A stretch of DNA of 64,000 bases from Candidatus Dadabacteria bacterium (GTDB lineage Bacteria > Desulfobacterota_D > UBA1144 > Nemesobacterales > CSP1-2), in the NCBI GenBank assembly GCA_963805855.1, contig CAWDVW010000006.1, forward strand, positions 1 to 64,000, in the 5' to 3' direction. Under the pieces are notes generated by a model. That model searched no databases. It had not been told where the DNA came from and worked only from the letters and a program-made list of their open reading frames with translations. Of this stretch, positions 2,841 to 19,373 are shown piece after piece (within the stretch, counting starts at the first letter, position 1; each line of letters opens with the position of its first letter). Made by a program: the position numbers and the translations under genes.

Positions 2841-4580
2841 ATGTATATCTTGGGTATTAATGCATACCATGGTGATTCATCAGCATGTATCATCAACGAT
2901 GGTGAAATTATCGCTGCAGTCGAGGAGGAGAGGTTCAGAAGGATAAAGCACTGGGCAGGATTTCCCTCGGAAGCAATCAACTACTGCCTTGAAGAAACAG
3001 GGATTTCACCCAGAGAAATATCGCATGTCGGTATATCCCGCAATCCGAGCGCTCATTTACATAGAAAAGTACTATTTTCCTTGTCGAAACGTCCGAGCTT
3101 TTCTATGATAAAAGACCGGATGGCTAACGTGGCTAAAGTAAAAGATATAAGAAACGAGTTCTGTAAAGCGCTAGAGCTCCCTTTCAACTATATAACGACC
3201 AGCTTCCATAACGTCGAGCATCATCGTGCCCATATGGCAAGCAGTTTTTTTCTTTCTCCTTTTGAAGATGCGGCGATATTATCTATAGATGGCTTTGGAG
3301 ATTTTGTAAGCACCATGTGGGGCGTTGGACTAGAAAACAAAATCAAAATTCTAGGCTCCGTGGGTTTCCCCCACTCTCTGGGTCTTTTTTACACGGCTGT
3401 CACTCAATATCTTGGATTTCTAAAATATGGTGATGAATATAAGGTTATGGGGCTCGCTGCTTACGGCGAGCCTGAATATGTGGACGATTTAGAAAAAATA
3501 GTGAGACTTAAAAAAAATGGAGATTTTGAACTAGAACTTGACTGTTTCCTCCACCATTCAGAGGGAGTCGATATGACATGGGAAGGGGGAGAACCTAACC
3601 TGGGAAAATTGTATTCAGATCAGTTTATAAAGAGGTTTGGACCTCCGAGAAATCGCGGGGAAGAACTCACAAAGCGACATGAAAACCTGGCTTCATCGCT
3701 CCAGGTGATATTGGAAGAAGCTTATTTTCACGTACTCAATAGCGTCTATGAGAAGACTAAAAAGAAAGCACTTTGTCTTGCCGGCGGAGTAGCATTTAAT
3801 AGTGTCGCTAATGGAAAGATATTTGATAACACACCCTTTGAGGAAGTCTATATTCAAGCAGCGGCCGGAGATGCAGGAACAGCTCTTGGAGCAGCCTACT
3901 ATATTTATCACCAGGTTCTTGGTAGACCTAGAAAATTTGAAATGAAGCACGCTTTCTGGGGGCCTGGCTTCTCCAACGGGAATATAGAAAGAGCTCTTAA
4001 AGACTCGAGATCAAATTACGAAGTCTTCGATGAAGATCTCATCCTGAAAAAAGCAGCTCAAGCAATCTCCGAGGGGAAGGTTGTGGGATGGTTCCAGGGA
4101 AGGATGGAATGGGGTCCACGAGCCTTGGGGAATAGGAGTATTCTTGTCGATCCCAGGAGAAAAGATATGAAAGACATACTAAATGCCAGAATAAAAAGAA
4201 GAGAGCCCTTCAGACCTTTTGCCCCGTCAATTCTAATCGAATCCGTAGGAGATTATTTTGAAAAAACCTATCCTGATCCTTTTATGATTAAAGTCTATCC
4301 CATTAAAAAAGATAAAAGAGGAGCAATACCCGCCGTAACTCATGTTGATGGCACAGGCAGGCTGCAAACCGTAAGTCGTGATGAAAATCCGATTTATTGG
4401 AAGTTAATAAAGGAATTCGAAAAATTGACGGGTGTTCCTGTGGTTCTTAATACCTCTTTTAACGAAAATGAGCCCATAGTTTGTACACCTCAGGAAGCAA
4501 TAGACTGCTTTTCAAGAACAAAGATGGATCTACTCGTCATTGGTAATTATTACGTAGAAAAGGATGCACAATCCAACTAG
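2841..4580 (+). CDS. Carbamoyltransferase (NodU/CmcH family)
   Basis: HGDSSAC, EEERFRRIKH, EHHRAH, DGFGD, GPRALGNRS, KRREPFRPFAP, HVDGTGRLQTV, LNTSFN; RBS AGGAGG. Confidence 0.96.
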   Translation: MYILGINAYHGDSSACIINDGEIIAAVEEERFRRIKHWAGFPSEAINYCLEETGISPREISHVGISRNPSAHLHRKVLFSLSKRPSFSMIKDRMANVAKVKDIRNEFCKALELPFNYITTSFHNVEHHRAHMASSFFLSPFEDAAILSIDGFGDFVSTMWGVGLENKIKILGSVGFPHSLGLFYTAVTQYLGFLKYGDEYKVMGLAAYGEPEYVDDLEKIVRLKKNGDFELELDCFLHHSEGVDMTWEGGEPNLGKLYSDQFIKRFGPPRNRGEELTKRHENLASSLQVILEEAYFHVLNSVYEKTKKKALCLAGGVAFNSVANGKIFDNTPFEEVYIQAAAGDAGTALGAAYYIYHQVLGRPRKFEMKHAFWGPGFSNGNIERALKDSRSNYEVFDEDLILKKAAQAISEGKVVGWFQGRMEWGPRALGNRSILVDPRRKDMKDILNARIKRREPFRPFAPSILIESVGDYFEKTYPDPFMIKVYPIKKDKRGAIPAVTHVDGTGRLQTVSRDENPIYWKLIKEFEKLTGVPVVLNTSFNENEPIVCTPQEAIDCFSRTKMDLLVIGNYYVEKDAQSN

Positions 4581-6095: not shown

Positions 6096-7037
6096 ATGAG
6101 AACTTCATCTGAAACTTTAGAAACAGAATATGAGATAGAATCATGTGTATATCGAAGTCCGTTCTACAAAAGAGTCTTGGATGTTTCTATCATTATTCTT
6201 GCACATATCGCCTTGCTTCCTATATGGGTTATTATTTGGTTGGTTATTCCTGTGGCCATCTGGCTTGAAGACCGGGGTCCAGTATTTTTCACAGATCAGA
6301 GAGTGGGTCAATACGGAAGGAGGTTTAAAGCATACAAATTTCGATCAATGGTTGTTAATGCAGATGATGGGCTTGGCCCAAAGCAGGCTGAAGAAAACGA
6401 CAGCAGGATTACGAAGGTAGGAAAGATTCTTCGTGCGACCGCCCTGGATGAACTACCCCAGTTAATAAATATCTTGATTGGCGATATGAGCTTCGTGGGT
6501 CCCAGAGCCCTTAGAGAAAATGAGATTGAAATAAATAGTGATTTTGGACGAATAGAGCATGTACCAGGTTACCGGATAAGAACCCAGGTTTCCCCTGGTC
6601 TGACTGGCATTGCACAGGTTTATGCTCCCAGGGATATAAATAAAAAGAATAAGTTTCGGTACGATGCCGTTTATGTAAAGAAAATGAGCCCCTGGCTGGA
6701 TATAAAGCTTGTCGTCCTTTCAGTATGGGTGACATTGAGGGGAAAATGGGAATCCAGGAATGATAAAATTGGCCTGAAGCTAGGAAACATAACGTTAACG
6801 AGACGACGAGTTAAAAAGGAAGAAGTGATGGTAAGCAACAAACCAATCGGTCAAATTCTTTTGGAAGAACGGGTTATTACAAAACAGCAACTGAATGATG
6901 GGATTCAGTTTCAAAAAATGCAAGGAGGTAAACTAGGACAGAATCTTATCAGAAAGGGTTATATTTCAGAATCCAGCCTTAGACACTTTCTGGATAAGCA
7001 ACTAGCAATGAATGGCGGTAGGTACCAATCTTTGTAG
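6096..7037 (+). CDS. Priming sugar (phosphoglycosyl) transferase, Bac_transf family, with a C-terminal MshEN-like c-di-GMP-binding domain
   Basis: KRVLD, YKFRSM, RITKVGKILRATALDELPQL, GDMSFVGPR, PGLTGIAQV; C-terminal PIGQILLEERVITKQQLNDGIQFQ-x5-KLGQNLIRKGYISESSLRHFLDKQ. Confidence 0.92.
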   Translation: MRTSSETLETEYEIESCVYRSPFYKRVLDVSIIILAHIALLPIWVIIWLVIPVAIWLEDRGPVFFTDQRVGQYGRRFKAYKFRSMVVNADDGLGPKQAEENDSRITKVGKILRATALDELPQLINILIGDMSFVGPRALRENEIEINSDFGRIEHVPGYRIRTQVSPGLTGIAQVYAPRDINKKNKFRYDAVYVKKMSPWLDIKLVVLSVWVTLRGKWESRNDKIGLKLGNITLTRRRVKKEEVMVSNKPIGQILLEERVITKQQLNDGIQFQKMQGGKLGQNLIRKGYISESSLRHFLDKQLAMNGGRYQSL

Positions 7038-7126: not shown

Positions 7127-10100
7127 TCATGGAACAGGGCACCCGTTTACTCCCACATTTAACCTTTCGTTTACATCAAAACAACTATCCCCTTGTATGT
7201 CATTTATCCCAGGTACAATCGCACCACACGGGAACTGACCCGTTGTCTGATTCCAAAGCTTTTCGTCTGTAAGCTCCCCATTTTCATATCTATAGACTAT
7301 ATTAGCTCCAATATCTTCGCGATTGAATCCAGCTCCAGCCATATTTGAGGATTGACCCCCTATTTTGGGGTTTGTGCCTCCATGTCCGTCGTGACCACCG
7401 GGTATATAGACGGCACATTGATTCGTTCCTGTGCCTATCAATGTTGGATTTATACTTGTCTCATGCGTAAAGTCTCCGTAAGCATCTCCTGCGGGAGGAT
7501 AGAAATTGGTGCCGTTGCTGTAGCCATTCGCATAATCAACATTCCAACCGCCCTGAAGCGGAGGTCTGGAACCACGTTTCGTAATGTCTATGCCCATTAT
7601 TACTTTATCCCGCACTAAGATATTGGAAGCGTGGAATGACGAATTGGGAGTTGTGGTCCCATCATCAGCCCTGCCGTGGGCAAGAATACCACTACCGTTG
7701 CCCCCCAAAATCGTCACATTGCTAACCTGCGTATTCACAGCCCCCGGTGATATAAGGTCGCCAAATCCACCCGGATCATAGTTATTGATGCAAACAAGAT
7801 TCTCGAATGTCGTATTCTGAACTAATTGGCTTTGAGTGCGACTGTCATTCCGAAAGCAATTGTATTTGTTACCGATCCCTATGTCTCCAAAGAATCGGTT
7901 GCCGACTGCCGTGCTGTGCGTCTGCATACCTTCGCTCGAATCAGCTCCATCGCCTTCTACTATCACATTCTCCATGATACTATTGCTAGTGCTGTAGAAA
8001 ACTATAGACCTATCCCCTACACTAGTAGTACCTCCTGGTATGGGAGAGAAATCCCTGACATTACCATAGACTCTTCTAAATGTGCATCTTTGTGACCCGT
8101 AACAATTTAACAAATGTCTAAGAGAATAATAGATTTCAGAATCTTCAACCAACATGGTATCACTAAGGGAAATATTGAACGGCGCTCCTCTTGTATACCG
8201 ATTATGCTTGGCAACCAATACTTTTCTAACGTTTATATTATTGTCATACCATAATTGAATTGTGTATATTTGGCCACTGGTGTTACCTGTATCAAAATCC
8301 CCACTTTCAAGCCACAATCCCTCTATATTCCAGTATGAACAATATTTCATCACAAGAGCCGATTGAGAACCATCTGATTGAACATAGGCCCGTCTTTCGT
8401 TTTCTGCTTTGATTGTTATGGGTTGAGTTGCAGTACCACTTTCAGCACTACCAGAACTACCACAATTTATAAAAGGCAACCCCGTGGTCGATTTAGTATA
8501 GGTACCATCTCTAAGAATCAGGGTGTCTCCCGGTAGAAGTTGAGATATTGCAAAACTGAGAGTCTTCCAAGGCCTACTAGATGTTCCCGGATTTGAATTC
8601 GATCCGGTAGGTGATATATAAAATGTGGGTCCCGATGGTTCGGGATCGGGAGTTGGCGTCGGTGTTGGAGTAGGATTTGGTGAGGGTTGGGGAGGAGAAG
8701 AAACACTGATAACTATCGAATCTGATGCGCTCATTCCATCATTGTCGACAACTTCAACTGTTGAATTGTAGGTTCCAGGAGCGGTATAAATGAATTCAAC
8801 GGGATTTGAGGTTGTAATGTCATCAACCGTTCCATTACCGTCATAATCCCATCTGTACTCTACAATATAACCATCGGGGTCATAGGCGTTTGATTCGAAA
8901 GTAACAAGAAGTGGGATTATACCGGATGAAGGACTTGCGCCTAGGTTTAAAGTTGGTGGCTGATTTTGGGAAGAAGGAGGTGAGGGGTTAGGGGTTGGTG
9001 TAGGTGTAGGCGTAGGAGTTGGAACATCATTTGTTGTTACTAAAGCTGATTTAATATAATTTAAATTAATTCCACCGCTATCCATTTCAATGCGCACCAC
9101 CTGTTCACCGGCATTTAATTCTACCCCTGCCACACTAACTGTCTGCCAGTTCTGCTCTCCACCCGTATTAGGTACTGCTATTGCCCCAGTCTTATCTACT
9201 CCATCAAATCTGATTCGAAACACCTTTCCACTCTCCTCCGATGCCACTCGTGCCTCTATCCTGTAAGTGCCAGAGTTCATGATATTCACCGTGTATTCAA
9301 GCCAATCTCCAGGTTCTGCCCCTTTGATGTTAAAACCACCTCCCACATCAGTAGAATCCTCAAGATTAAATTCAGAGGCATCTACCCGATATACTGGCCA
9401 TGCTGTAGGAAACGTATTCTTGAAAGCAAAACCTTTACCTCCCCAGTCAAAGTCTTCTGCCTCAATAACTCCTGGGATTTCTCTAGGTCCACCATTAAAA
9501 GGGGCCTGTTGTACCACGTCTCCACTATATGCCGCTGGGTCCGATAGAGCTTGCCACCATTCTTCCGTTGCTATAGATTCACTAGCGCTAGTAACTACCA
9601 ATGCACTACCATTAGGATCATCCTTAAAAGCAGGTACCTTCATGAATGGATTACCAAATGAGTTAGGTATATCTATCCAGTGACTGAATGAGACCCTTTT
9701 GGTTGTGATCAAATAATCAGGCCTCATTAAAGATATGGGAGCAGGACCATCTCCATCTATATCTCCAAGTAGACCTTGACCCTGCTGATGCTTATCAACC
9801 ATAAAACGTTTCAGCTCATTTTCGGGTATTTCTGTTCCAGCCAACCTTGATTTTGTAACCTCTGGAGGAGAATACAGGCTCGGAAATTGCACGTAGCTAA
9901 ATTTCTCAAGCACAATATAAGCAGCCCATCCGTCTAGCTGTCCGTTATAGGCATTCATATTGTCCTCTCTCCCAAGAACTGAAGCCACCACTACTTTGTC
10001 AGCAATACTGTTATCCAATAGATAGGCATCCGCCACAGCGGTCAGTGGGCCCCCGGTTACTATAACTAAGGGTTTTTCTGCGGTTGCCTTATTAGCCTCT

Positions 10101-11002
10101 TGTACGATCAAGCGACTGCCGGGGGTATCAATAGGTTCCGTATCCTCAATTACATCAGAGGCAGGATGCGCAAGTGGTCTTGCAGGACCTGGAACCGGAT
10201 CAGGAATATTAATCATCCCGCTGCGTCGGGCTTTACCCACTATATCGTTGTACATAGGAGTGTCCCATATGTCAGGATCATCCAGTTCCCCACCTCCCGC
10301 GTCGGGAACGATCCCTACTAGATTAATATCTCCAGCACTGGCCAATGCCATGAGATACTCTAATGTGTATGTATCGATATTCCCGTCATTGGTGTGTATG
10401 ACAGGACTAGTGTTATCATAGGGTAATAGCGTAGGATCTGGCGAAGCGGTCGGGGATGGCGTAGGAGTGGGTGCTAGGGTCGGAGTTGCGGTCGGCGTTG
10501 GAGATGGTCTCGGGGTTGGTGTGGGAGTAGGCGTCGGAGTTGGTATAGGACTTGGAGTCGGTGTTGGCGCGGGGGACGGTGTGGGAGTGGGAGTAGGTGG
10601 GGGATCAGGAGGTGTAAATCCCCATGCAACATACAGTTCTCCTTTAGAGCGACCTTCAATGGTACCTTTATTCTCTGAAGCATAGTTGGTATGGCTTTTA
10701 TAGAAACTATCTCTTGAATAATTAAAGGATTTGCTGTCTATTTTAAAATCGTAGGCCGATGAAGTGGTAGGGAGAAAAAGAATTGCTCCGAAGAGAATTA
10801 AAAAACTTCTAGTGAAATTTTTGCGAGAAATGAATAAAGCCTTTTTGAATAAACGACGATTTGTATAAATTTTCCCATCCTCCTCAATTTTGGTTTGTGA
10901 CAAACCGTCCTCAAGGGGATGAATCGCTAGCTTATAATTTGAAGGATTGATTGCTGGAATTATTAGGGATAGAGTGACAATTACAATACCCAACTTCGGC
11001 AA
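7127..11002 (-). CDS. Large secreted multidomain protein: signal peptide, Pro/Thr linker, nucleoside-hydrolase-like domain, CBM6, PKD, right-handed beta-helix (polysaccharide lyase-like). The true start is probably near 10878, downstream of the riboswitch
   Basis: Signal [24 protein letters not shown]; (PT)n linkers; [27 protein letters not shown] (CBM6); [16 protein letters not shown] (PKD); [35 protein letters not shown] (beta-helix start). Confidence 0.85.
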
Positions 11003-11248: not shown

Positions 11249-12091
11249 ATGATTAAAAGCTATTCAAGCAATTTGAGCTTGTCCAAAACTTTTCGAATTT
11301 TCGAACGTGCCAGATTCCCCGTAAAAAGATATTGTTTGCGTTGCAAGTATCGTGGTTTATCAAGATTATCAAATCGAAGATATTACTGCCGTCGTTGTAG
11401 TTACAAGTTTTCCGCGCTCACCAATACTCGTCTTAGCAGAAGCTTTCTTCCTCTAGATAAATGGTACGAATTGCTCTGGTGGTTTGCTTATGACCACACT
11501 GCTAACCAGACTGCAAAAGAAGTGAGGTTGCCTCAACAGAGGGTTCATAGATGTTTTTCTACTATTCGACTAGCCATTTACGATTATGAGCAACTCGAGA
11601 TGAAACATGTCCTGGGTCAGGCGAGGAAAGATGAGACGCTTGTAGATATTAAGAACGAAATAATGAAAAAGGCTGGCCTGAAATATTACGCGAAGGCAAA
11701 GGCCGTTAAACATTTTGGCGTTGCAAGAATTCAAAAGAACCCCGTTTTTTGTCTTTATGAATTAGGTGGTCGAGTATATATCGGGTCTATCAGTGAACCT
11801 GAGAAGAACACTTTCCAGGCGATAATCAATGGAACCATTCTTCTCGACGAGCCAAGAGACCAGAAAAAAGAAGAATACGAAAAGGATCAGAGGGATAAGA
11901 AACCTCATACGAATGCTATAGAAGAATTCTGCAGCTATTTAAAAGAACAAATCATTAAACATCATGGTGTATCAAAGAATAATCTTATTTACTATATCAA
12001 GGAGAAAGAATTTAGATTTAATCAAAGACAGTTAAGAAAAAAAGGATTTGTAGAAAAACTGGTTGCAATCTTGGTAAATCCCAGTCATTGA
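11249..12091 (+). mobile_element. IS1595 (ISXO2-like) family transposase, possibly degenerate
   Basis: Zn ribbon CLRC..CRRC, KDET, HTNAIEEF, KHHGVSK, YIKEKEFRFN; no clear terminal IRs seen. Confidence 0.75.
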
Positions 12092-12219
12092 ACGGCGTAG
12101 ATGCCATAACTAAATATCACATAATACATTTTCACTGCAAAAGATTATAACTTAAGTCCAATTTACTATGATTAAACAAACAATTATAGTTACATATAAA
12201 ATTAGTTAAGGAGATAAAT

Positions 12220-12402
12220 ATGGATGAGCATCACCTAAAAGATGAGGATACGAGTGTAGATAGCGTCAGAAGGAGACTATTAAAGATTGGAATCTATTCT
12301 GTTCCTGCTGTCATACTCTTAGGAAGAGTTCCCAAGGCAAGGGCAAGTAATGGAGTTTCATCTCTTTCTACTTCAACTTCTTCACCTCGTAGGCCCAGGT
12401 AA
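12220..12402 (+). CDS. Small peptide with Tat-like leader and Ser/Thr-rich tail; putative RiPP precursor
   Basis: RBS AAGGAG at 12208; SVRRRLLK..YSVPAVILL..ARA|SNGVSSLSTSTSSPRRPR; lies directly upstream of the kinase, PqqD and NTase genes. Confidence 0.75.
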   Translation: MDEHHLKDEDTSVDSVRRRLLKIGIYSVPAVILLGRVPKARASNGVSSLSTSTSSPRRPR

Positions 12403-12567
12403 AACGATTAAGAGAAAGGAATAATGACGTTTCAATGCTAGGTGAAATTCTTGAATTTAGATCCTATCGATGTACTGATTTTATACCTATTATTTCAGAA
12501 ACGGTCGGAGGCGTGATTTTCAATTACTTGCCGATTTCGCATACTCGGTATTATTTCATGATCACAA

Positions 12568-13446
12568 ATGGTTAGAGATACGCTTAGCTCAGATGTTAAA
12601 TTCTTTTACACAATAAATGTTCCGAGCCTTTTTATTAAAGCTTTGTCTAATTCCCGCGATTTCATTGATCAATTTCGAAAACTTACGTCTGGATTGCGAT
12701 TAAACAGTAAAGAACATCTGGCTGACGTTGAATATGAGATTTGTTTGACGCCAAACGGCTATGGTAAACATCATATAAAAAGAAACGGAAGCATTGTTTA
12801 CAAAACCCATGATCGTGGTGACCTTCTAATAAAGTTACTTGTATCTGTTCAGAATGATTTTATACAAACTTTCGACGATCACCTCATTCTTCATTCAGCG
12901 TTAGTTATTAAAAATGGGAAGGCCATCGTTCTCCCTGGACATAGAAAAAGCGGCAAGAGCACACTTGTTATATCTTTGCTAAAACATGGGTTTAAATATT
13001 ACTCAGATGATATCACAGCTATTAATCTGAAATCATGGGGAGCTACTGGATTTCCAAGGGCCATAATGATTAGAAATGGATCTTTATCTTTATTTCCTTC
13101 TCTTAAACCGGAATTAAGTTGTTATAGTTACAAATTCAACAATGGTCATAAGTCAAAGAAGGTCCATTTAGGAATACCTTCAAAAAGGGTATTGGCGCCT
13201 TTGAATAAATCTTTTCCCATATCATCAATAATTTTTCCTAAATATAGTGCAAATGGAAACACATCCATAAGCGATATACGAAATTCAACTGCTGCATTAA
13301 ACCTATTGGCTTGCACCATTAATCAAAATAGTTTTGTCGATAGTGGTTTCAACACAGTAGCAAGTATTGTAAGAAATATCAGGTGCTATTCTTTGCAGAT
13401 AAAAGATTTGTCGAATGCTTCTGAAATTGTTAATGGGCTAATTTAG
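12568..13446 (+). CDS. HPr-kinase-related P-loop kinase
   Basis: LILHSALVIKNGKAIVLPGHRKSGKSTL (His + Walker A) and YSDD motif. Confidence 0.85.
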   Translation: MVRDTLSSDVKFFYTINVPSLFIKALSNSRDFIDQFRKLTSGLRLNSKEHLADVEYEICLTPNGYGKHHIKRNGSIVYKTHDRGDLLIKLLVSVQNDFIQTFDDHLILHSALVIKNGKAIVLPGHRKSGKSTLVISLLKHGFKYYSDDITAINLKSWGATGFPRAIMIRNGSLSLFPSLKPELSCYSYKFNNGHKSKKVHLGIPSKRVLAPLNKSFPISSIIFPKYSANGNTSISDIRNSTAALNLLACTINQNSFVDSGFNTVASIVRNIRCYSLQIKDLSNASEIVNGLI

Positions 13447-13489
13447 GGTACTTTTTCGTTACGTCGGGAATCAGAGTTTGGAGGAATAA

Positions 13490-13807
13490 ATGTCAAATGT
13501 CAAAGCGTCAAAAAAAATGAAATCGACTAATCACAATTTAACAAGTGAGAAAATAAACAGGAAAACTGACATCTTAAGAGAACAACTTGATGATGAGACT
13601 CTTCTATTTAATCCAAAGACTAGAAACACTTATGTTTTAAACGATATGGCTGATGTGATATGGGGGCTATGTGATGGAATGCATAGTCCTGAAGAAATTG
13701 CTGATGAAATTGTATCTGTATTGGATGTAGAGCCCGATATTGTATTTAAAGATGTGTCGAAAGTTCTTGAAGAATTCATCCGCCAAAATTTGGTTGAAGT
13801 AGATTAG
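13490..13807 (+). CDS. PqqD-family RiPP recognition element (RRE)
   Basis: LDDETLLFNPKTRNTYVLNDMADVIWGLCDG..SPEEIADEI..DVSKVLEEF..NLV; RBS GGAGG. Confidence 0.92.
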   Translation: MSNVKASKKMKSTNHNLTSEKINRKTDILREQLDDETLLFNPKTRNTYVLNDMADVIWGLCDGMHSPEEIADEIVSVLDVEPDIVFKDVSKVLEEFIRQNLVEVD

Positions 13808-13908
13808 TTTTTGATGAACCTGCAACTATGAACGATGGAGTATTTCCGCTAACTAGCGAATTTTCTGTAGCTTGATGCAGGGAGTTTCATTAAATGTTTT
13901 AGCCGTTA

Positions 13909-14140
13909 TGTCATCCCCGAAGTCAGTAGTCGGGGATCCAGAGGCATTGTTATGGATTCCCAATAACTGCGTTTGGGAATGACACGAGGGGGGTGGATTA
14001 CCGCGGACTATCCGCGAACGACAGAAAGGATAGGCGGGGTTTTCCAACCCGAACGATAAAACATCAGGAATGGAAACCTAAAGGTTTCCGCTACCTTTAG
14101 TTGAAATCCTATTTTGTGTAGCGGAGGACTTTAGTCCTCC
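13909..14140. repeat. REP-like cluster: RPE-like long hairpin, GATAG-type REP, and two GTAG-type REPs
   Basis: GTCATCCCCGA..TCGGGGATCCA..TGGATTCCC..GGGAATGAC (about 13910-13983); GATAGGCGGGGTTTTCCAACCCG (14029); GGAAACCTAAAGGTTTCCGCTAC (14072); GTAGCGGAGGACTTTAGTCCTCC (14118). Confidence 0.75.
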
Positions 14141-14497
14141 ATAAAATCGATTAGGTGAAAACTGCACCGTTATTCATCGACGATCTGTTATTCATTTTTA
14201 TTCTTTCTTTGTCTTGATAGAAAGAAACAAAAATCAAGGGCTGCAAAAAATTAGGAATTAATAAATCAATTCCTTCAGCTAAAAATATTTAATCCGACCA
14301 CGACCCCAAATCTTTTTTTAACGCTTTCGGAATTGATTTTGGCAATTTTTTGAATGCCCATTTAAAACCTAGAAAACTGTCCTCGAATTACTTGACATCT
14401 ACAGCAATGACATGTGGGACTTTCAGTTTTTATTATCATCTCCTGTAGTTTCCCGAAGGGGTATTAACTTTAAACCGATATTCTAGGACGTAAGTCA

Positions 14498-15734
14498 ATG
14501 AATCGAAAAGAAAATAGCCTCCTAGTGCTCCTCTTAAAAAATGAGATTAATTCGGAGGAGAGGGAAGAAGCGGTAAATATCACAAGTCGGAAACCTGCCT
14601 GGGACTATATCTTATCAAAATCAATTGAACTCGATTTGGCTCCGATAGTATATTTCAACCTTAAGACTCTGAGCAAAAGGTACCCCGAAGTCCTTGAAGT
14701 TATACCTGAGCACATTGTAGAAGAGTTGAAAAAGAAATACTACATAAATACTGCTAAAAACAAACTTTTTTTCGAAGAACTAAATAATATCCTTAATTCC
14801 TTCAACGAGGCCGGAATCCCTATCATAGTGCTTAAAGGAGCAGCTCTCGCAGAGCTTTTTTACAACGATAGAGGCTTAAGAAAGATGGTTGATATTGATA
14901 TATTGGTCAGAAAAGAGTACTTAGGACTCTCGGAAGAAATTATGAAGAAGCTTAATTACAATCCAAGAGAAAGTAATATCCCGTCCGATCGTCATTTCAT
15001 GGAAAATCACCACCATCTTGTTCCTTATTTGTCAGAAGATAAGCTAGTCCAAGTGGAAATTCATCATAATCTTATCCCAAATTCAAACCCTCATTCAATT
15101 GACCTCTCAAGAGTTTGGAAAAGGGCAGACAGGGTCGTCATAGGCGGGACAAATAGCATTGACTCTATGTCCGGAAGATATGCTGTTGCATCTATGCCTG
15201 CATGTATCCCTTACAGATACGTTTCTTAGGGAAACTTAGGGGTCTATGCTGATATTCCAGAAATTATACAAAAATGTAAAACAAATTTGAACTGGGATCA
15301 GATTCTCAAGCGAATCTAAAGAATATAGAATTATAACCTACATGTACTACACGCTCTGGAGTTGCAAGGAATTATTAAATACTGAAATTCCTGATGAAGT
15401 ACTGGAAAAATTGAAACGGAAAAAATCAACCGGATATATTGAAGATAAAGTTTTAAAAGGTCTAATTTGTCGATATGTCTTCGTGGCAGATCAGTCTGGA
15501 AATTTTATCCCTCTTGGAATCATCAGATCATTTGCACAAAAACTTTTACAAGATACGGGGAGAAGGAATATTTTTATTACATTTGCAATTAGCATAAGAG
15601 AAACTTTTAATAGTTCGATCGTAAGTAAATATCAGGGGCGAAAATTAATGCCCCTCTACATTTTCTTACAGGTTTTTCGAGTGTTTTTTAAATATTCTTG
15701 GATTAGATTTGAAAAAGGTAACAGGTATATATAA
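14498..15734 (+). CDS. Nucleotidyltransferase (NTP_transf_5-like), frameshifted near 15150-15320
   Basis: IVLKGAALA..RKMVDIDILV, VEIHH; an alternative frame continues LCPEDMLLHLCLH; ORF 15342-15734 is the C-terminus. Confidence 0.85.
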
Positions 15735-15905
15735 GTCCGGTATAAGCCTAAGGTTTTAAATCTACATCTAAATTATAACTCTTGTTTATATTAAATAGAA
15801 TCCAAAGTCTAGTTTAAAAGATATCATAGACCTTCTATCATGATAGTAAGGGGAAAGGTTTGTTGTTAAAGCAATGTGTATAGTAGGCTAAAAATCATAA
15901 ATATT

Positions 15906-17021
15906 ATGAGATACATATTAATGCTGTCGTCTTTTTGCGTTTTAGTTGTGACGGGTTGTATAGGTGCGGCTCCAGGACCCGCGATTGCGAGACCTACCCC
16001 AGCAAGAACGCAGGCGTACAGGCCACGAATAAAGAAATAGAAAGCTTAAATAAGAAAATGATAGCCGGTAAGTCATCTAAGAGTGTCGATTCATCTTCGA
16101 ACCCGGTCAGTACGAATGAAGAAATAGACAGCTTAAATAAAGAGATAACGACTAAGCCATTTAAAACTGCATCAGTTCATCTTCGAAATCGGTCACGGAT
16201 GATTATTTAATCGGTCCGGGGGATCTTTTGGAGGTGAAGGTGTATGGTTCTGATGATTTGAATGACGAGGTTAGGGTCAATTCCTTCGGTAAAGTTTCTT
16301 ATTCCCTGGTGGGCGAAGTTGAAGTTGGCGGGCTCAGCGCCTCTCAAGCTGAAGAAAGACTTGAAGGGTCTTCTTGGTGAAAAATACATAAGAGACCCTC
16401 ATGTTAATGTTTTCATTAAAGAGTACAGAAGTAAAAGCGTTGCCGTACTTGGGGCGGTCAAAAATCCTGGAAATTTTGAGCTATTAAAAAAGGGACGACT
16501 GATCGATGCTCTTGCATTGGCTGGAGGTCTTTCTGATACCGCTAGCAAGTTGATATATTTAGCTAGGTCAGGAAAGACGAATCTGAGTGGAAATTGATCT
16601 GGAAAAGGTAGAAAAAGGCAATCTGGTATTATTGGAAATGCCAATACAAGTCGGGGATACAATTTATGTTCCTGAGGCAGGCATCTACTATGTGAATGGA
16701 GCGGTGCGAAGGCCTGGCCAATTTCCGATTACTCCTGGAATCACTTTTAGCCAGGCTATACAAATCGCTGGAGGATTAAGATCTGGTTCTCAAAACGTGA
16801 GACTCGTAAGATATGAAAATGGCCAGCAAAATGTTATACCGGTTGATATTAAAGCTATTGAAAGTGGCGCTGAACAGGATATTCCTCTTCAGGATCGAGA
16901 TATAGTTATCGTTGGCCAAAATGCAATAGTAGCATTTTTACAACAGTTTAGACTGGGATTTAATTTCTGGCCCTTCCCATTCAATATTGGGGGTAGTGGC
17001 GTACCAGATGTACCTCAGTGA
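15906..17021 (+). CDS. wza: Polysaccharide export lipoprotein (Wza/GumB-like, Poly_export + SLBB), with multiple frameshifts
   Basis: Lipobox VVTGC; DYLIGPGDLLEVKVYG; DPHVNVFIKEYRSKSVAVLGAVKNPG; DALALAGGL; QAIQIAGGL; split across several frames. Confidence 0.82.
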
Positions 17022-17069: not shown

Positions 17070-19373
17070 ATGGAACAAGACGAAAAAGGCAGAGATATTG
17101 TTGCTTATGGAAGTAAGGTTCCTAAGCAATATGCAGATGATATAGAAATTCTGGGCTCCAGTAATAACGAAGAACAGATTGACCCACACACCTATCTGCG
17201 CATTATATGGAAGCATAAAAAAATAGGTTTGATTTTCGTCTTCTTTGTGTTGATGTCGGCGCTCATAGTTTCTATTTTGACAAAGCCTATGTATTTGGCT
17301 AGATCTACTGTAGAGGTCGCGTTACAAAGGCCAAAAATAGTGGGTTTTCAAGATGTGATGGAAATCGCAACGAGGGACCCTGAATCTTTTAACACACAGA
17401 GGGATCTGATTGCTAGCCGCGCAATGGCAGAAGCAGTGCTCGCTAAATATAACCTCTGGGATTACCCTGATTTGTATATCTCTGAACCAAATCTTAATCC
17501 TGTTTCAATTGTTATGTCTTATGTAATGAGGGCTGTTAACACGGTCGTTAAGCCCTTAATGAGGCGGGCGAACAAAGACGTGGCTCAGCAAAGTGTAGCT
17601 AATAGCGCTTTTGTAGTAGAGGACGCCCCTGAAAAGATTAAACAAGACAGGATAATAAATGAATTTCTTTCAAGATTGACTGTGACGCCCTCCAAAGATT
17701 CTCGGATTTTGACAATTACTTTTGAAGCTTATAATCCGCAATTTGCTGCAAAGATGGTGGACGCGATAGCAGATACATATGTTGAATGGAGCGAGGGTCG
17801 TGTAGTCAAAGCTACTCGTGATGCGAGCAGATTTTTGCAAAAACAACTCGGGGAAGTTGAAGGCGATCTAGCGGCGTCCGAGAAGGCGTTTCATCAATAC
17901 ATGGAGGAAAACAACATCGTTTCTCTTGACCAAAATTTGAATCAGATATACGGTACGCTCGATTCACTAAACAAATCATTGGCAAATACCACGGCGGACA
18001 AAGTCGTAAAAGAATCTATTTATGAATCTGTGGCATCCGGGAATTATGACTCGTTTTTCGAAGTCGTTAGCGACCCACTCATTCAGGCGCTAAAGGGTGA
18101 ATATAATGACCTTATGATCCAATACAGTGATCTTAGTTCATTCTACAAGTCTGAGTACCCACCTCTTAAAAAGCTTCAAGCAAAGATTGAAGGGCTCCGT
18201 GAGCGCTTAAATAACGAAATAAAAACCAAGGTTAAGGCTATTGAAACGAATTATAAGACAGCCGCTCACAAAGAGGAACTTCTTAAAACGCGTGTGGACG
18301 AACAGGAGAAGCTGGCTATGGCACTCAATGAAAAGACCGTGCAATATAAAAAGCTTCAAAGAGAGGTTAAGAGCAGTCAGTCCATTTATGACTCATTGTT
18401 GCAGCGTTTAAAGGAAACTGACGTCACGCAAGGCATAAAATCTAATGGTATTCAGGTCGTAGACCATGCATCGATTCCGTTAGCTCCTTTTAGACCCAAC
18501 ATCCCCCGCAATCTCATACTTGCTTTCGTTGTGGGACTGATAGGTGCAGTAGGAATGGCCTTTTTACGAGAGTTCTTTGATAGATCTGTTAAGACTCCCG
18601 ATGAAATTAGAGAAAAGATGCATTTGCCTGTTCTCGGAGCTATATATAAGCTTAATGGTTACAAACACCAAAATGAATTGGAGTATCCGTCAGCAAAGTT
18701 ATGTATGGCTAATCCGAGGTCACCTTTCTCTGAATCTATTCGCAATATTCGTCTGTCAATCTTACTTTCAACTAACGGTAAACCAACAAATTCAATTCTT
18801 GTTACTAGTCCATGGCCGGGTGAGGGTAAGACGACGTTAGCCGGTAACCTCGCGATTTCCTTAACGTTCGGTGGTAAATCAGTTTTATTGATCGATGCTG
18901 ATTTAAGACGTCCCGGTTTGTCTAAGACTTTTGGGGTTGGAGAAGGTATACCGGGTCTCGTAAACTATCTTTTATACCTGTCCGAGATGGAAGACATAAT
19001 CCATTCTACCGATATCCCTCAGCTCTTTTTGCTCCCTCCTGGGTCAAATATTCCACACGATGCCTCAGAGTTATTGCATAGTGATGAATTTAAGCAACTT
19101 CTGCAGCATGTGAAAGAGAAGTTTGACTATATCGTGGTTGACAGCTCTCCTTCAATTGGAATCTCTGACTCTTTTTTGCTTTCAACACTAATTGATGGAA
19201 CGGTAATTGTGGCGAGTACTGGCACAACAACGCAAAAAGATCTTTCTTATGTTGTACAGAAGCTCTATGATATTGATGCGAGACTTTTAGGTGTTGTCGT
19301 AAATCGAGTTGAAGAGGGAAGAGATGCCTATTATGATCGTTATAACCACTACTACAAAAATTTGACACAGTAA
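17070..19373 (+). CDS. wzc: Polysaccharide co-polymerase / tyrosine autokinase (Wzc/GumC)
   Basis: Two TM segments and coiled coil; VTSPWPGEGKTT Walker A; LIDADLRRP; YIVVDS; C-terminal Tyr cluster YYDRYNHYY. Confidence 0.95.
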   Translation: MEQDEKGRDIVAYGSKVPKQYADDIEILGSSNNEEQIDPHTYLRIIWKHKKIGLIFVFFVLMSALIVSILTKPMYLARSTVEVALQRPKIVGFQDVMEIATRDPESFNTQRDLIASRAMAEAVLAKYNLWDYPDLYISEPNLNPVSIVMSYVMRAVNTVVKPLMRRANKDVAQQSVANSAFVVEDAPEKIKQDRIINEFLSRLTVTPSKDSRILTITFEAYNPQFAAKMVDAIADTYVEWSEGRVVKATRDASRFLQKQLGEVEGDLAASEKAFHQYMEENNIVSLDQNLNQIYGTLDSLNKSLANTTADKVVKESIYESVASGNYDSFFEVVSDPLIQALKGEYNDLMIQYSDLSSFYKSEYPPLKKLQAKIEGLRERLNNEIKTKVKAIETNYKTAAHKEELLKTRVDEQEKLAMALNEKTVQYKKLQREVKSSQSIYDSLLQRLKETDVTQGIKSNGIQVVDHASIPLAPFRPNIPRNLILAFVVGLIGAVGMAFLREFFDRSVKTPDEIREKMHLPVLGAIYKLNGYKHQNELEYPSAKLCMANPRSPFSESIRNIRLSILLSTNGKPTNSILVTSPWPGEGKTTLAGNLAISLTFGGKSVLLIDADLRRPGLSKTFGVGEGIPGLVNYLLYLSEMEDIIHSTDIPQLFLLPPGSNIPHDASELLHSDEFKQLLQHVKEKFDYIVVDSSPSIGISDSFLLSTLIDGTVIVASTGTTTQKDLSYVVQKLYDIDARLLGVVVNRVEEGRDAYYDRYNHYYKNLTQ

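Follow-up and report, generated by a model that had tools for sequence, protein, structure and literature searches.

A cyclase-less kinase, RRE, and nucleotidyltransferase cassette in a Dadabacteria exopolysaccharide locus and its candidate twin-arginine-type precursor peptide

What does a peptide kinase act on when its gene lies beside those for a peptide recognition domain and a nucleotidyltransferase, with no lasso cyclase nearby? The question is raised by a 64,000-nt window of DNA (positions 1 to 64,000 of contig CAWDVW010000006.1, assembly GCA_963805855.1) from a Candidatus Dadabacteria bacterium, whose 3.1-Mb genome is assembled in 9 contigs and is 93.8% complete. Positions 12220-15734 of its forward strand encode a 60-aa peptide, an HPr-kinase-like kinase, a discrete PqqD-type recognition element for peptides synthesized ribosomally and modified post-translationally (RiPP recognition element, RRE), and a nucleotidyltransferase (NTase), upstream of wza- and wzc-type genes of an exopolysaccharide (EPS) locus. 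An earlier account based on the DNA letters (the sequence-only reading) had described this four-gene run; its peptide, kinase, RRE, and NTase assignments hold, with the corrections that the NTase gene is frameshifted in the assembly and that a 690-bp gap follows the RRE gene. It had also reported no cyclase, B2, or radical SAM gene in the window, and family scans covering 41 of the 45 open reading frames (ORFs) of at least 150 aa, the other four of which overlap longer genes, likewise found none of these families. TIGR04352-type kinase-RRE-NTase cassettes are common, and no substrate is assigned to them in the literature searched. The present locus, with its 60-aa peptide, one predicted modified residue (Ser43), 105-aa RRE, and 292-aa kinase, constitutes a minimal test system.

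The 60-aa peptide is very probably the substrate of the cassette, as the sequence-only reading had proposed, judging from its conserved leader-plus-core pattern and its linkage to kinase, RRE, and NTase genes. Its gene (12220-12402), identified as an ORF and supported by homologs and short-read coverage, follows a strong ribosome-binding site (RBS), AAGGAG (12208-12213, 6 nt 5′ of the ATG), and encodes a 42-aa conserved leader and an 18-aa variable core. All of the elements described earlier are present. The sequence SVRRRLLK contains the twin-arginine-type motif R17-R18-R19-L20-L21-K22 (12268-12285), recognized as a motif and by its conservation in the clade; it is followed by the RRE-binding-type motif Y26-x-x-P29-x-V31...G35 (12295-12324), which includes YSVP and lies within a 13-residue uncharged, hydrophobic stretch. 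The sequence A40-R41-A42|S43 (12337-12348) then combines a putative signal-peptidase site with a conserved serine, the candidate phospho-acceptor, and 9 of the 18 residues in the tail are Ser or Thr.

Homologs were drawn from a word search (7 besides the peptide itself), a profile search (31 matches), and the genomes of relatives, where 6 of 119 other genomes match the peptide at E<=0.01, one of them falsely. Conservation was counted across the closest clade, which contributed 27 distinct peptides. The motif conservation that the sequence-only reading had named as a check was found: the leader pattern RRxLLK-YxxPxV-G-AxA is fixed in the clade, with RR, L20, Y26, G35, and A40 invariant in 27/27 peptides, P29 present in 26/27, and A42 in 22/27. 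The cores, by comparison, are hypervariable and may be Pro-rich, Lys/Arg-rich, acidic, or Cys-bearing; their one conserved feature is a Ser at Y+17, the position of Ser43, in 25/27 peptides (Thr in 1). Because the cores vary and a single Ser is kept, a tail rich in Ser/Thr does not characterize the family. The importance that the sequence-only reading had attached to it was rejected, since a Ser/Thr content of at least 50% is found in only 2/27 cores (3-24% in the others) and is peculiar to this copy. Differences between the leader codons and those of 9 homologs favor third positions (70/38/133 at codon positions 1/2/3), which supports the precursor as a real gene. The combination RR..LL + [YFW]xxPx[VIL] occurs in only 2 of the 1,160 short RBS-bearing ORFs of the genome, this peptide and one poor match. 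A scan of the peptide against Pfam and NCBIfam, Tat-signal models included, gave no match at E<=10; family scans of the peptide together with 12 homologs assigned the window peptide to no family, and the ESM Atlas returned only unnamed clusters at 0.94, with recognition below the mark and named neighbors (<0.9) serving as leads only.

The leader and the enzymes travel together across genomes. When the genome was scanned as 89,732 six-frame segments with a profile built from 22 proteobacterial leaders only, the window peptide came out on top (E 0.015; 17.1 bits, with 13.9 for the next segment), and an earlier profile from 8 canonical leaders also placed it first, more weakly (E 0.15 vs 0.25). 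In 401 Proteobacteria genomes surveyed with a broader leader profile (45 rows, the window peptide included), 85 have kinase and leader, 19 the kinase only, 30 the leader only, and 267 neither; after removal of 24 seed genomes, the leader is found in 61/80 kinase-positive and 30/297 kinase-negative genomes. The two genes lie no more than 5 kb apart in 71 of the 85 genomes. Twenty of the 30 leader-only genomes were opened: 12 hold a Zetaproteobacteria-like cassette with RRE and NTase (11 of these with a kinase below the cut-off), one holds an orphan leader, and 7 hold ordinary twin-arginine translocation (Tat) proteins matched at weak E-values. Within the phylum of the window, 23 of the 25 best kinase loci were examined, leaving aside one of the B2 type and one without a locus; the leader is in the short locus in 16 of the 23 and 3.5-4.5 kb off in 5, and one locus is cut inside the leader. 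The genome G009 (G and L numbers are our handles for genomes and loci) has two leader copies elsewhere.

Twenty long loci of the canonical type show the same arrangement. A twin-Arg ORF lies upstream in 19 of them (9 by profile at E<1e-3, compared with 0/20 controls; the rest by rule or by eye), the NTase gene adjoins the kinase gene in 19, and no B2 match was found in the 20. For Sphingomonadales loci, a crude rule flagged 69 of 75 evaluable cases, a count used only qualitatively because about 9 picks are wrong-frame ORFs. Several observations weigh against so close a bond between peptide and enzymes. The surveyed genomes are related, so that the co-occurrence counts overstate independence; G010 (94% complete) encodes two such peptides and only a housekeeping HPr kinase match; G008 (99% complete) has a degenerate leader and no kinase, NTase, or discrete RRE match; and the NTase gene lies apart from the kinase gene in G002 and G009. 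The degenerate leader of G008 (L080:844-1614) is continuous in frame with a superoxide-dismutase-like gene, which has retained an RBS of its own.

The same survey bears on another explanation: the peptide would be a small secreted protein with an ordinary Tat signal, the RRE no more than an export-timing chaperone, and the true target of kinase and NTase something else, such as an EPS sugar or protein. The reach of the leader profile into ordinary Tat proteins and the orphan leaders without a detected kinase fit this view, as do the Sphingomonadales partners, which carry a plain Tat signal without YxxP; canonical proteobacterial leaders, too, have xVP without the Tyr, which makes the Tyr less than universal and counts against the reading favored below. 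We nevertheless consider this explanation improbable: the YxxP-type motif is found in 0/6 long Tat-like ORFs of the genome, the presence of the leader is strongly tied to that of the kinase, the core varies freely except for one Ser, and close analogues phosphorylate their precursor with the aid of an RRE.

The kinase (12568-13446, 292 aa) scores 110 bits against TIGR04352, under the 200-bit cut-off, and has the six residues required in the lasso peptide kinase BsfK (H109, G124, K130, S131, D147, and D148) at the same spacing, in agreement with its earlier assignment as HPrK-like; its single mismatch to the BsfK motif is a Gly that is dispensable in BsfK (PMC10368454). PF27840 is also listed for the kinase. 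In a kinase tree, the window kinase groups with those of G002 and G009, apart from the canonical and B2-type kinases; a motif filter had removed 9 of the 43 rows, the tree contains no characterized kinase, deep branches are unresolved, and the B2 label of G013 was taken as given. The TIGR04352 cut-off is passed in 62 of the 401 sampled Proteobacteria and in 0 of 120 genomes of the phylum of the window. For scanning genomes, an alignment of diverse kinases proved too variable; a narrower one gave 80 loci, nearly all from Sphingomonadales.

BsfK phosphorylates Ser3 of its precursor with the aid of an RRE (PMC10368454), and Ser3 is also the residue that LppK phosphorylates in a linear peptide (PMC13381572). 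The offset from the Tyr is similar in all three systems: the conserved Ser is at Y+17 here, S3 of LppA at Y+18 (PMC13381572), and S3 of BsfA at Y+19 (PMC10368454). By analogy, the kinase would add one or more phosphates to Ser43, the sole conserved residue of the core, and we regard Ser43 as probably phosphorylated. Two proteobacterial precursors stop no more than 2 residues past the AxA-like site, at S or SP. Weighing against this assignment, Zetaproteobacteria-like precursors often lack the Ser, and Ser at +1 is common after signal-peptidase sites in general.

The RRE (13490-13807, 105 aa) belongs to PF05402 and is the only discrete RRE found in the genome. It scores 18.6 bits against TIGR04353 (cut-off 35), and its profile matches TbiB1, TfuB1, and structures 9x8z and 9x90, the latter two from PMC13381572. 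From the solved complexes of lasso systems and of linear polyphosphorylated peptides (LPP), the RRE would be expected to bind the leader at Y26-x-x-P29-x-V31, for which the evidence comprises motif conservation, the lasso register, and a complex prediction of the kind that the sequence-only reading had put forward as a check. The prediction scored 0.53 for the RRE with the leader, compared with 0.01 for the best of 3 controls, with contacts agreeing at >=94% and a partner pLDDT of at least 64. The mark for such predictions is passed by 116/157 solved pairs and 2/215 mismatched pairs and, at scores <=0.60, by 18/157 solved pairs and both mismatches. The prediction weakly supports RRE-leader binding, and it may reflect likeness to RRE-leader complexes that have already been solved.

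The NTase (14498-15734), assigned by family scan and intact orthologs, belongs to PF14907, resembles PsmN and LppN, and retains D132-x-D134. In pseudomycoidin biosynthesis, PsmN requires D134/D136 for the addition of hexose to phospho-Ser (PMC6993621). The corresponding role here, capping or glycosylation of the Ser43 phosphate, would be the least certain step of the pathway, and addition of a sugar or nucleoside monophosphate is a tentative assignment that we place a little short of even. A fold search with a model of the G002 NTase (pLDDT 80) returned only generic nucleotidyltransferase folds at TM about 0.3, indicating no reaction; FKRP is among these weak matches (E 9e-3, rank 27). Deletion of lppN changed nothing in a heterologous host (PMC13381572), which speaks against a modifying role.

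How would the product leave the cytoplasm? The leader has the makeup of a Tat signal, with RRRLLK, 13 uncharged residues, basic R36/K39/R41, and ARA, and its best 12-residue hydropathy of 2.27 lies within the range of 1.5-2.7 spanned by 6 Tat-like ORFs. A TatC gene is present in the genome. The search for dedicated alternatives gave no match to the SipW-type peptidase model TIGR02228 in the genome and no ATP-binding cassette (ABC) gene closer than 18 kb to the cassette; a phosphonate-type importer at 33-36 kb comes nearest. Two points count against a Tat signal: curated Tat signal models give the peptide no match at E<=10, so the assignment rests on the motif (one homolog matches PF10518 at E 0.08), and the residue preceding the Ser is Pro, Thr, or Asn, with no Ala, in 5/27 clade peptides. 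These residues are poor at that position for signal peptidase. On balance, the leader features make us lean slightly toward export via Tat.

The same doubts suggest a different fate for a RiPP substrate, namely that the RR and hydrophobic stretch serve only for RRE binding or for holding the peptide at the inner membrane and that the phosphorylated peptide acts in the cytoplasm, for example as a signal that tunes Wzc. The missing Tat model match and the non-Ala residues at −1 are consistent with this proposal, as are a Pro within the hydrophobic stretch and the cores of 1-2 residues, which leave little cargo to export. The RR is, however, present in 31/31 profile matches (a profile that favors RR) and missing from precursors of the same family that accompany B2 and ABC genes, and the same leader type is found on folded passengers (Hint domains, an S8 peptidase, and 130-290-aa proteins). 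A purely cytoplasmic role thus appears unlikely.

We therefore return to export as the favored fate and propose that RRE binding of the leader and phosphorylation of Ser43 would be followed by NTase capping or glycosylation, after which the same leader would act as a Tat signal and housekeeping signal peptidase would cut at A-x-A; by analogy with the characterized systems, we hold this combination to be moderately probable. The product would be a phospho(glyco)peptide of the periplasm or cell surface, produced together with the exopolysaccharide. Use of Tat and housekeeping signal peptidase by the leader would account for the lack of genes for a dedicated peptidase or pump. If the leader does both dock to the RRE and drive Tat export, peptide modification would be tied to a general route of export with no pathway-specific protease or pump, and both the role of PsmN/LppN-type enzymes and the placement of such clusters in capsule loci would become testable.

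In terms of known systems, the closest likeness is to LPP of Paenibacillus alginolyticus (lppA-K-B-S-D-N; Popov et al. 2026, PMC13381572), which shares a discrete RRE, a kinase that is HprK-like, an NTP transferase, and the lack of a cyclase. As described there, LPP also has a YxxPxV leader, a variable C-terminus, a conserved Ser right after the leader, a setting in capsular-polysaccharide loci, and cleavage of the leader by a signal-peptidase-type enzyme, which is putative here. The LPP system encodes a dedicated SipW-like (archaeal-type) peptidase and an MsbA-like pump, neither of which has a gene here; in their place, the window leader has the RR, hydrophobic stretch, and AxA. The overlap with the LPP consensus YxxPxVLxHQxIxFETxxS is limited to YxxPxV and the terminal Ser, which here comes one position sooner. 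The words 'Tat', 'twin-arginine', 'signal peptide', and 'Pseudomonadota' are absent from the main text of PMC13381572. The sequence-only reading had called the function of kinase-PqqD-NTase trios unknown; this stands for the canonical trios, which have no assigned substrate in the literature searched, whereas cyclase-less RRE, kinase, and NTase sets in capsule loci are now partly described (PMC13381572).

The phosphorylated or phosphoglycosylated lasso systems BsfA/B1/K/N (PMC10368454) and pseudomycoidin PsmK/PsmN (PMC6993621) have the same three tailoring families and resemble the cassette in the YxxPxL register at −17 to −12, the start of the core at Y+17, the spacing of kinase residues, and the NTase DxD. 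The register is found here as Y26-P29-V31 with Ser43 as +1. Missing are the cyclase, B2, an ABC exporter, Thr (or Ile/Val) at −2, and a ring-forming acid in the core. A lasso ring requires Asp or Glu at core position 7-9.

Could the cassette instead tailor a lasso peptide, with cyclase and B2 encoded at another place in the genome? The lasso register of the leader and an asnB-like (asparagine-synthase-like) gene at C2:201858-203582, one of three in the genome, without the N-terminal Cys, would allow it. In contrast, no B2 was found in the genome (93.8% complete), its only PF13471 match being a 473-aa transglutaminase; no RRE, B2, or convincing precursor lies near the three asnB-like genes; and position −2 is Arg/Lys, not Thr, in 25/27 clade peptides, with no Asp or Glu in the window core. 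With no lasso pathway, and hence no cognate cyclase of the kind named by the sequence-only reading, found in the genome, this explanation is already largely refuted. The asnB-like genes beside 4 canonical cassettes were also considered as lasso cyclases and rejected, as their products begin MCG and are of the amidotransferase type.

The third comparison is with HPr-rel-A (TIGR04352 kinase and TIGR04353 PqqD chaperone), which resembles the cassette in its kinase-RRE-NTase neighborhood, also present in G005, and in an upstream twin-Arg partner with a related leader. The window kinase and RRE are both below the HPr-rel-A cut-offs and the kinase is on its own branch; the canonical partners are 130-290-aa proteins without the Tyr, in contrast to the 60-aa peptide here. 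A paper naming the HPr-rel-A system was not found in the literature searched. A parallel for the export step is provided by the bufferins, RiPPs with an export-signal leader that are Sec-dependent and modified by non-haem iron enzymes. In both, a signal peptide would replace a dedicated leader peptidase and exporter; bufferins are not known to be modified by a kinase or an NTase. The cassette thus falls outside the definitions of lasso and LPP systems and below the HPr-rel-A cut-offs, and by analogy it would be an undescribed Gram-negative variant of the Bacillota phosphopeptide system that works most like LPP. A Tat-leader kinase/RRE/NTase system was not described in the literature searched, which covered neither subscription papers nor the supplements of PMC13381572, the latter of which might list Gram-negative members; the terms searched for were not found in the text of the RRE-Finder paper (PMC7470986).

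The setting of the cassette in an EPS locus, noted by the sequence-only reading, recurs in other genomes. EPS probes are found near 10/20 long canonical cassettes vs 1/20 control windows, with wza, wzc, or wbaP near 6/20 vs 0/20, and all 4 of the closest loci are at, or split from, wza-wzc. In the window, the wza-type gene (15876-17021; frameshifted in the assembly) and the wzc-type chain-length/tyrosine kinase gene (17070-19373), both assigned by family scan, follow the NTase gene on the forward strand. The coupling is not strict: none of six EPS probes occurs within about 10 kb in the other 10/20 long canonical loci, and in G009 the RRE and kinase genes are together with wza-wzc while the peptide and NTase genes are elsewhere, which weakens it.

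This enrichment is one argument for the strongest version of the sequence-only reading, a phospho-Ser peptide that acts as primer, carrier, or anchor, with the Wzy/Wza/Wzc polysaccharide started or retained on it. The role is supported further by near-empty cores with an invariant Ser beside glycosyltransferase-like genes, by the need for PsmN to place hexoses on phospho-Ser (PMC6993621), and by FKRP among the weak NTase fold matches. Such a role is not needed, since half of the canonical loci have no EPS probe nearby and an undecaprenyl-phosphate sugar transferase for priming is encoded in the window itself (6096-7037, family scan); kinase matches are found in only 7 of 14 family genomes, and no direct link joins peptide to polymer. 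We consider a primer or anchor distinctly improbable. Rather unlikely as well is the broadest version of the proposal, a widespread bacterial system in which one N-terminal peptide is both RRE bait and Tat signal; the system places a phospho-glycan on a single Ser and exports cargo from one residue up to self-cleaving Hint domains and proteases, with the modified Ser as EPS primer or surface anchor.

The assembly itself bears on whether the cassette is intact. Relative to the 428-aa ORF of G002, single extra bases break the NTase gene into 14498-15229, a short middle piece, and 15342-15734, and extra single bases likewise break wza relative to its intact G002 ortholog. Short-read contigs from several runs were compared with the window. 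They show dense single-base insertions and substitutions in the window at 15144-16600, disrupting both genes; the first extra NTase base is absent from three short-read runs, and one contig lacks four extra bases. Over the peptide, kinase, and RRE, in contrast, the contigs agree at 0-1 differences, the precursor ORF being covered piecewise and spanned whole by one contig. Because short-read contigs lack the extra bases, the frameshifts are likely to be assembly errors. Decay of the cassette, with NTase and wza as pseudogenes and the peptide a relic, would also account for the frameshifts and for the repeat-filled gap, and one short-read piece shares some of the window letters there and has gaps of its own. 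We judge decay very improbable in view of the contigs without the extra bases, the intact peptide, kinase, and RRE with their catalytic residues, and the orthologs intact in G002 and G005, the NTase included.

The 690-bp non-coding gap (13808-14497) is a composite of short repeats that occur in dozens of copies on most contigs, as seen by blastn against the genome itself and by high read depth. The G002 genome has an IS110 transposase after the RRE, with NTase-wza-wzc on a different contig. An IS1595-like ORF (11249-12091) lies directly upstream of the precursor gene and occupies the same position in G002 at 70% identity, for which reason it is possibly domesticated. Promoter and terminator matches are at chance level (18 vs 14.1 +/- 4.1). 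Farther upstream and divergent from the cassette, a gene on the reverse strand (7127-11002) encodes a 1291-aa secreted-type protein with Pro-Thr linkers and CBM6/35, PKD, and pectate-lyase-like domains. G005, G009, and L066 have genes like it upstream.

Related clusters vary the theme. B2-type clusters combine an RRE and/or lasso-type precursor with kinase and B2 and no adjacent cyclase (L204, L205, L206, L213; G004, G005, G011, G084), and from their sequences they would form, within the same order, a second type of linear phosphopeptide. NTase and ABC genes accompany them in G004 and G005, and ABC genes only in G011. Their precursors have FxxPxL or WxxPxL leaders without RR, and B2 matches are confined to such loci, whereas RR-leader cassettes have neither B2 nor an exporter. 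A Cys-x-x-x-[EK]-x-I-I-[TS]-x-x-x-Cys-like core is found behind one B2-type leader (L097:685-897, G011) and four orphan RR-leaders (L077, L078, L079, L084); the CxxxExIITxGxC-like core common to both suggests a single pool of precursors that serves both leader types. L205:184-1773, next to a B2-type cluster, encodes a fusion of an RRE with a PGA_cap domain.

In the sister family f2, 14 precursors consist of an RR leader, ANA-x-SN, 2-7 residues, and then a Hint domain (L014:2266-2853 and 2905-3489; L017-L020, L024, L044-L046, L053, L058). Cys1 and His-Pro are invariant in the fused domains, and Ser-Thr replaces the terminal His-Asn. The Hint profile matches intein CatC at E 1e-8, and the fold matches of a low-confidence model are inteins, features that suggest N-terminal self-cleavage that could release or ligate a modified peptide. 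Other sister-family loci (L358, L360, L355, L354, L356, L361; G053, G043, G089, G093, G059) have one RR-leader precursor or an array of as many as 5 near-identical ones, which keep ANA-x-S ahead of cores of 4-15 residues, beside glycosyltransferase-like genes and an NTase gene.

Zetaproteobacteria-like cassettes (L257-L263, L294-L305, L313) combine the same leader type and Cys-rich cores with NTase, kinase, and an RRE-bearing protein, which is a radical SAM/SPASM protein in the one such cassette scanned. An RRE-fused radical SAM/SPASM protein at L009 (G000:C7, about 389,000) has look-alikes across the family. On a Shinella plasmid (L072:4022-5717), a related leader is found both on an 86-aa Gly/Ser/Arg-rich peptide and on an S8 peptidase, beside a kinase-RRE fusion.

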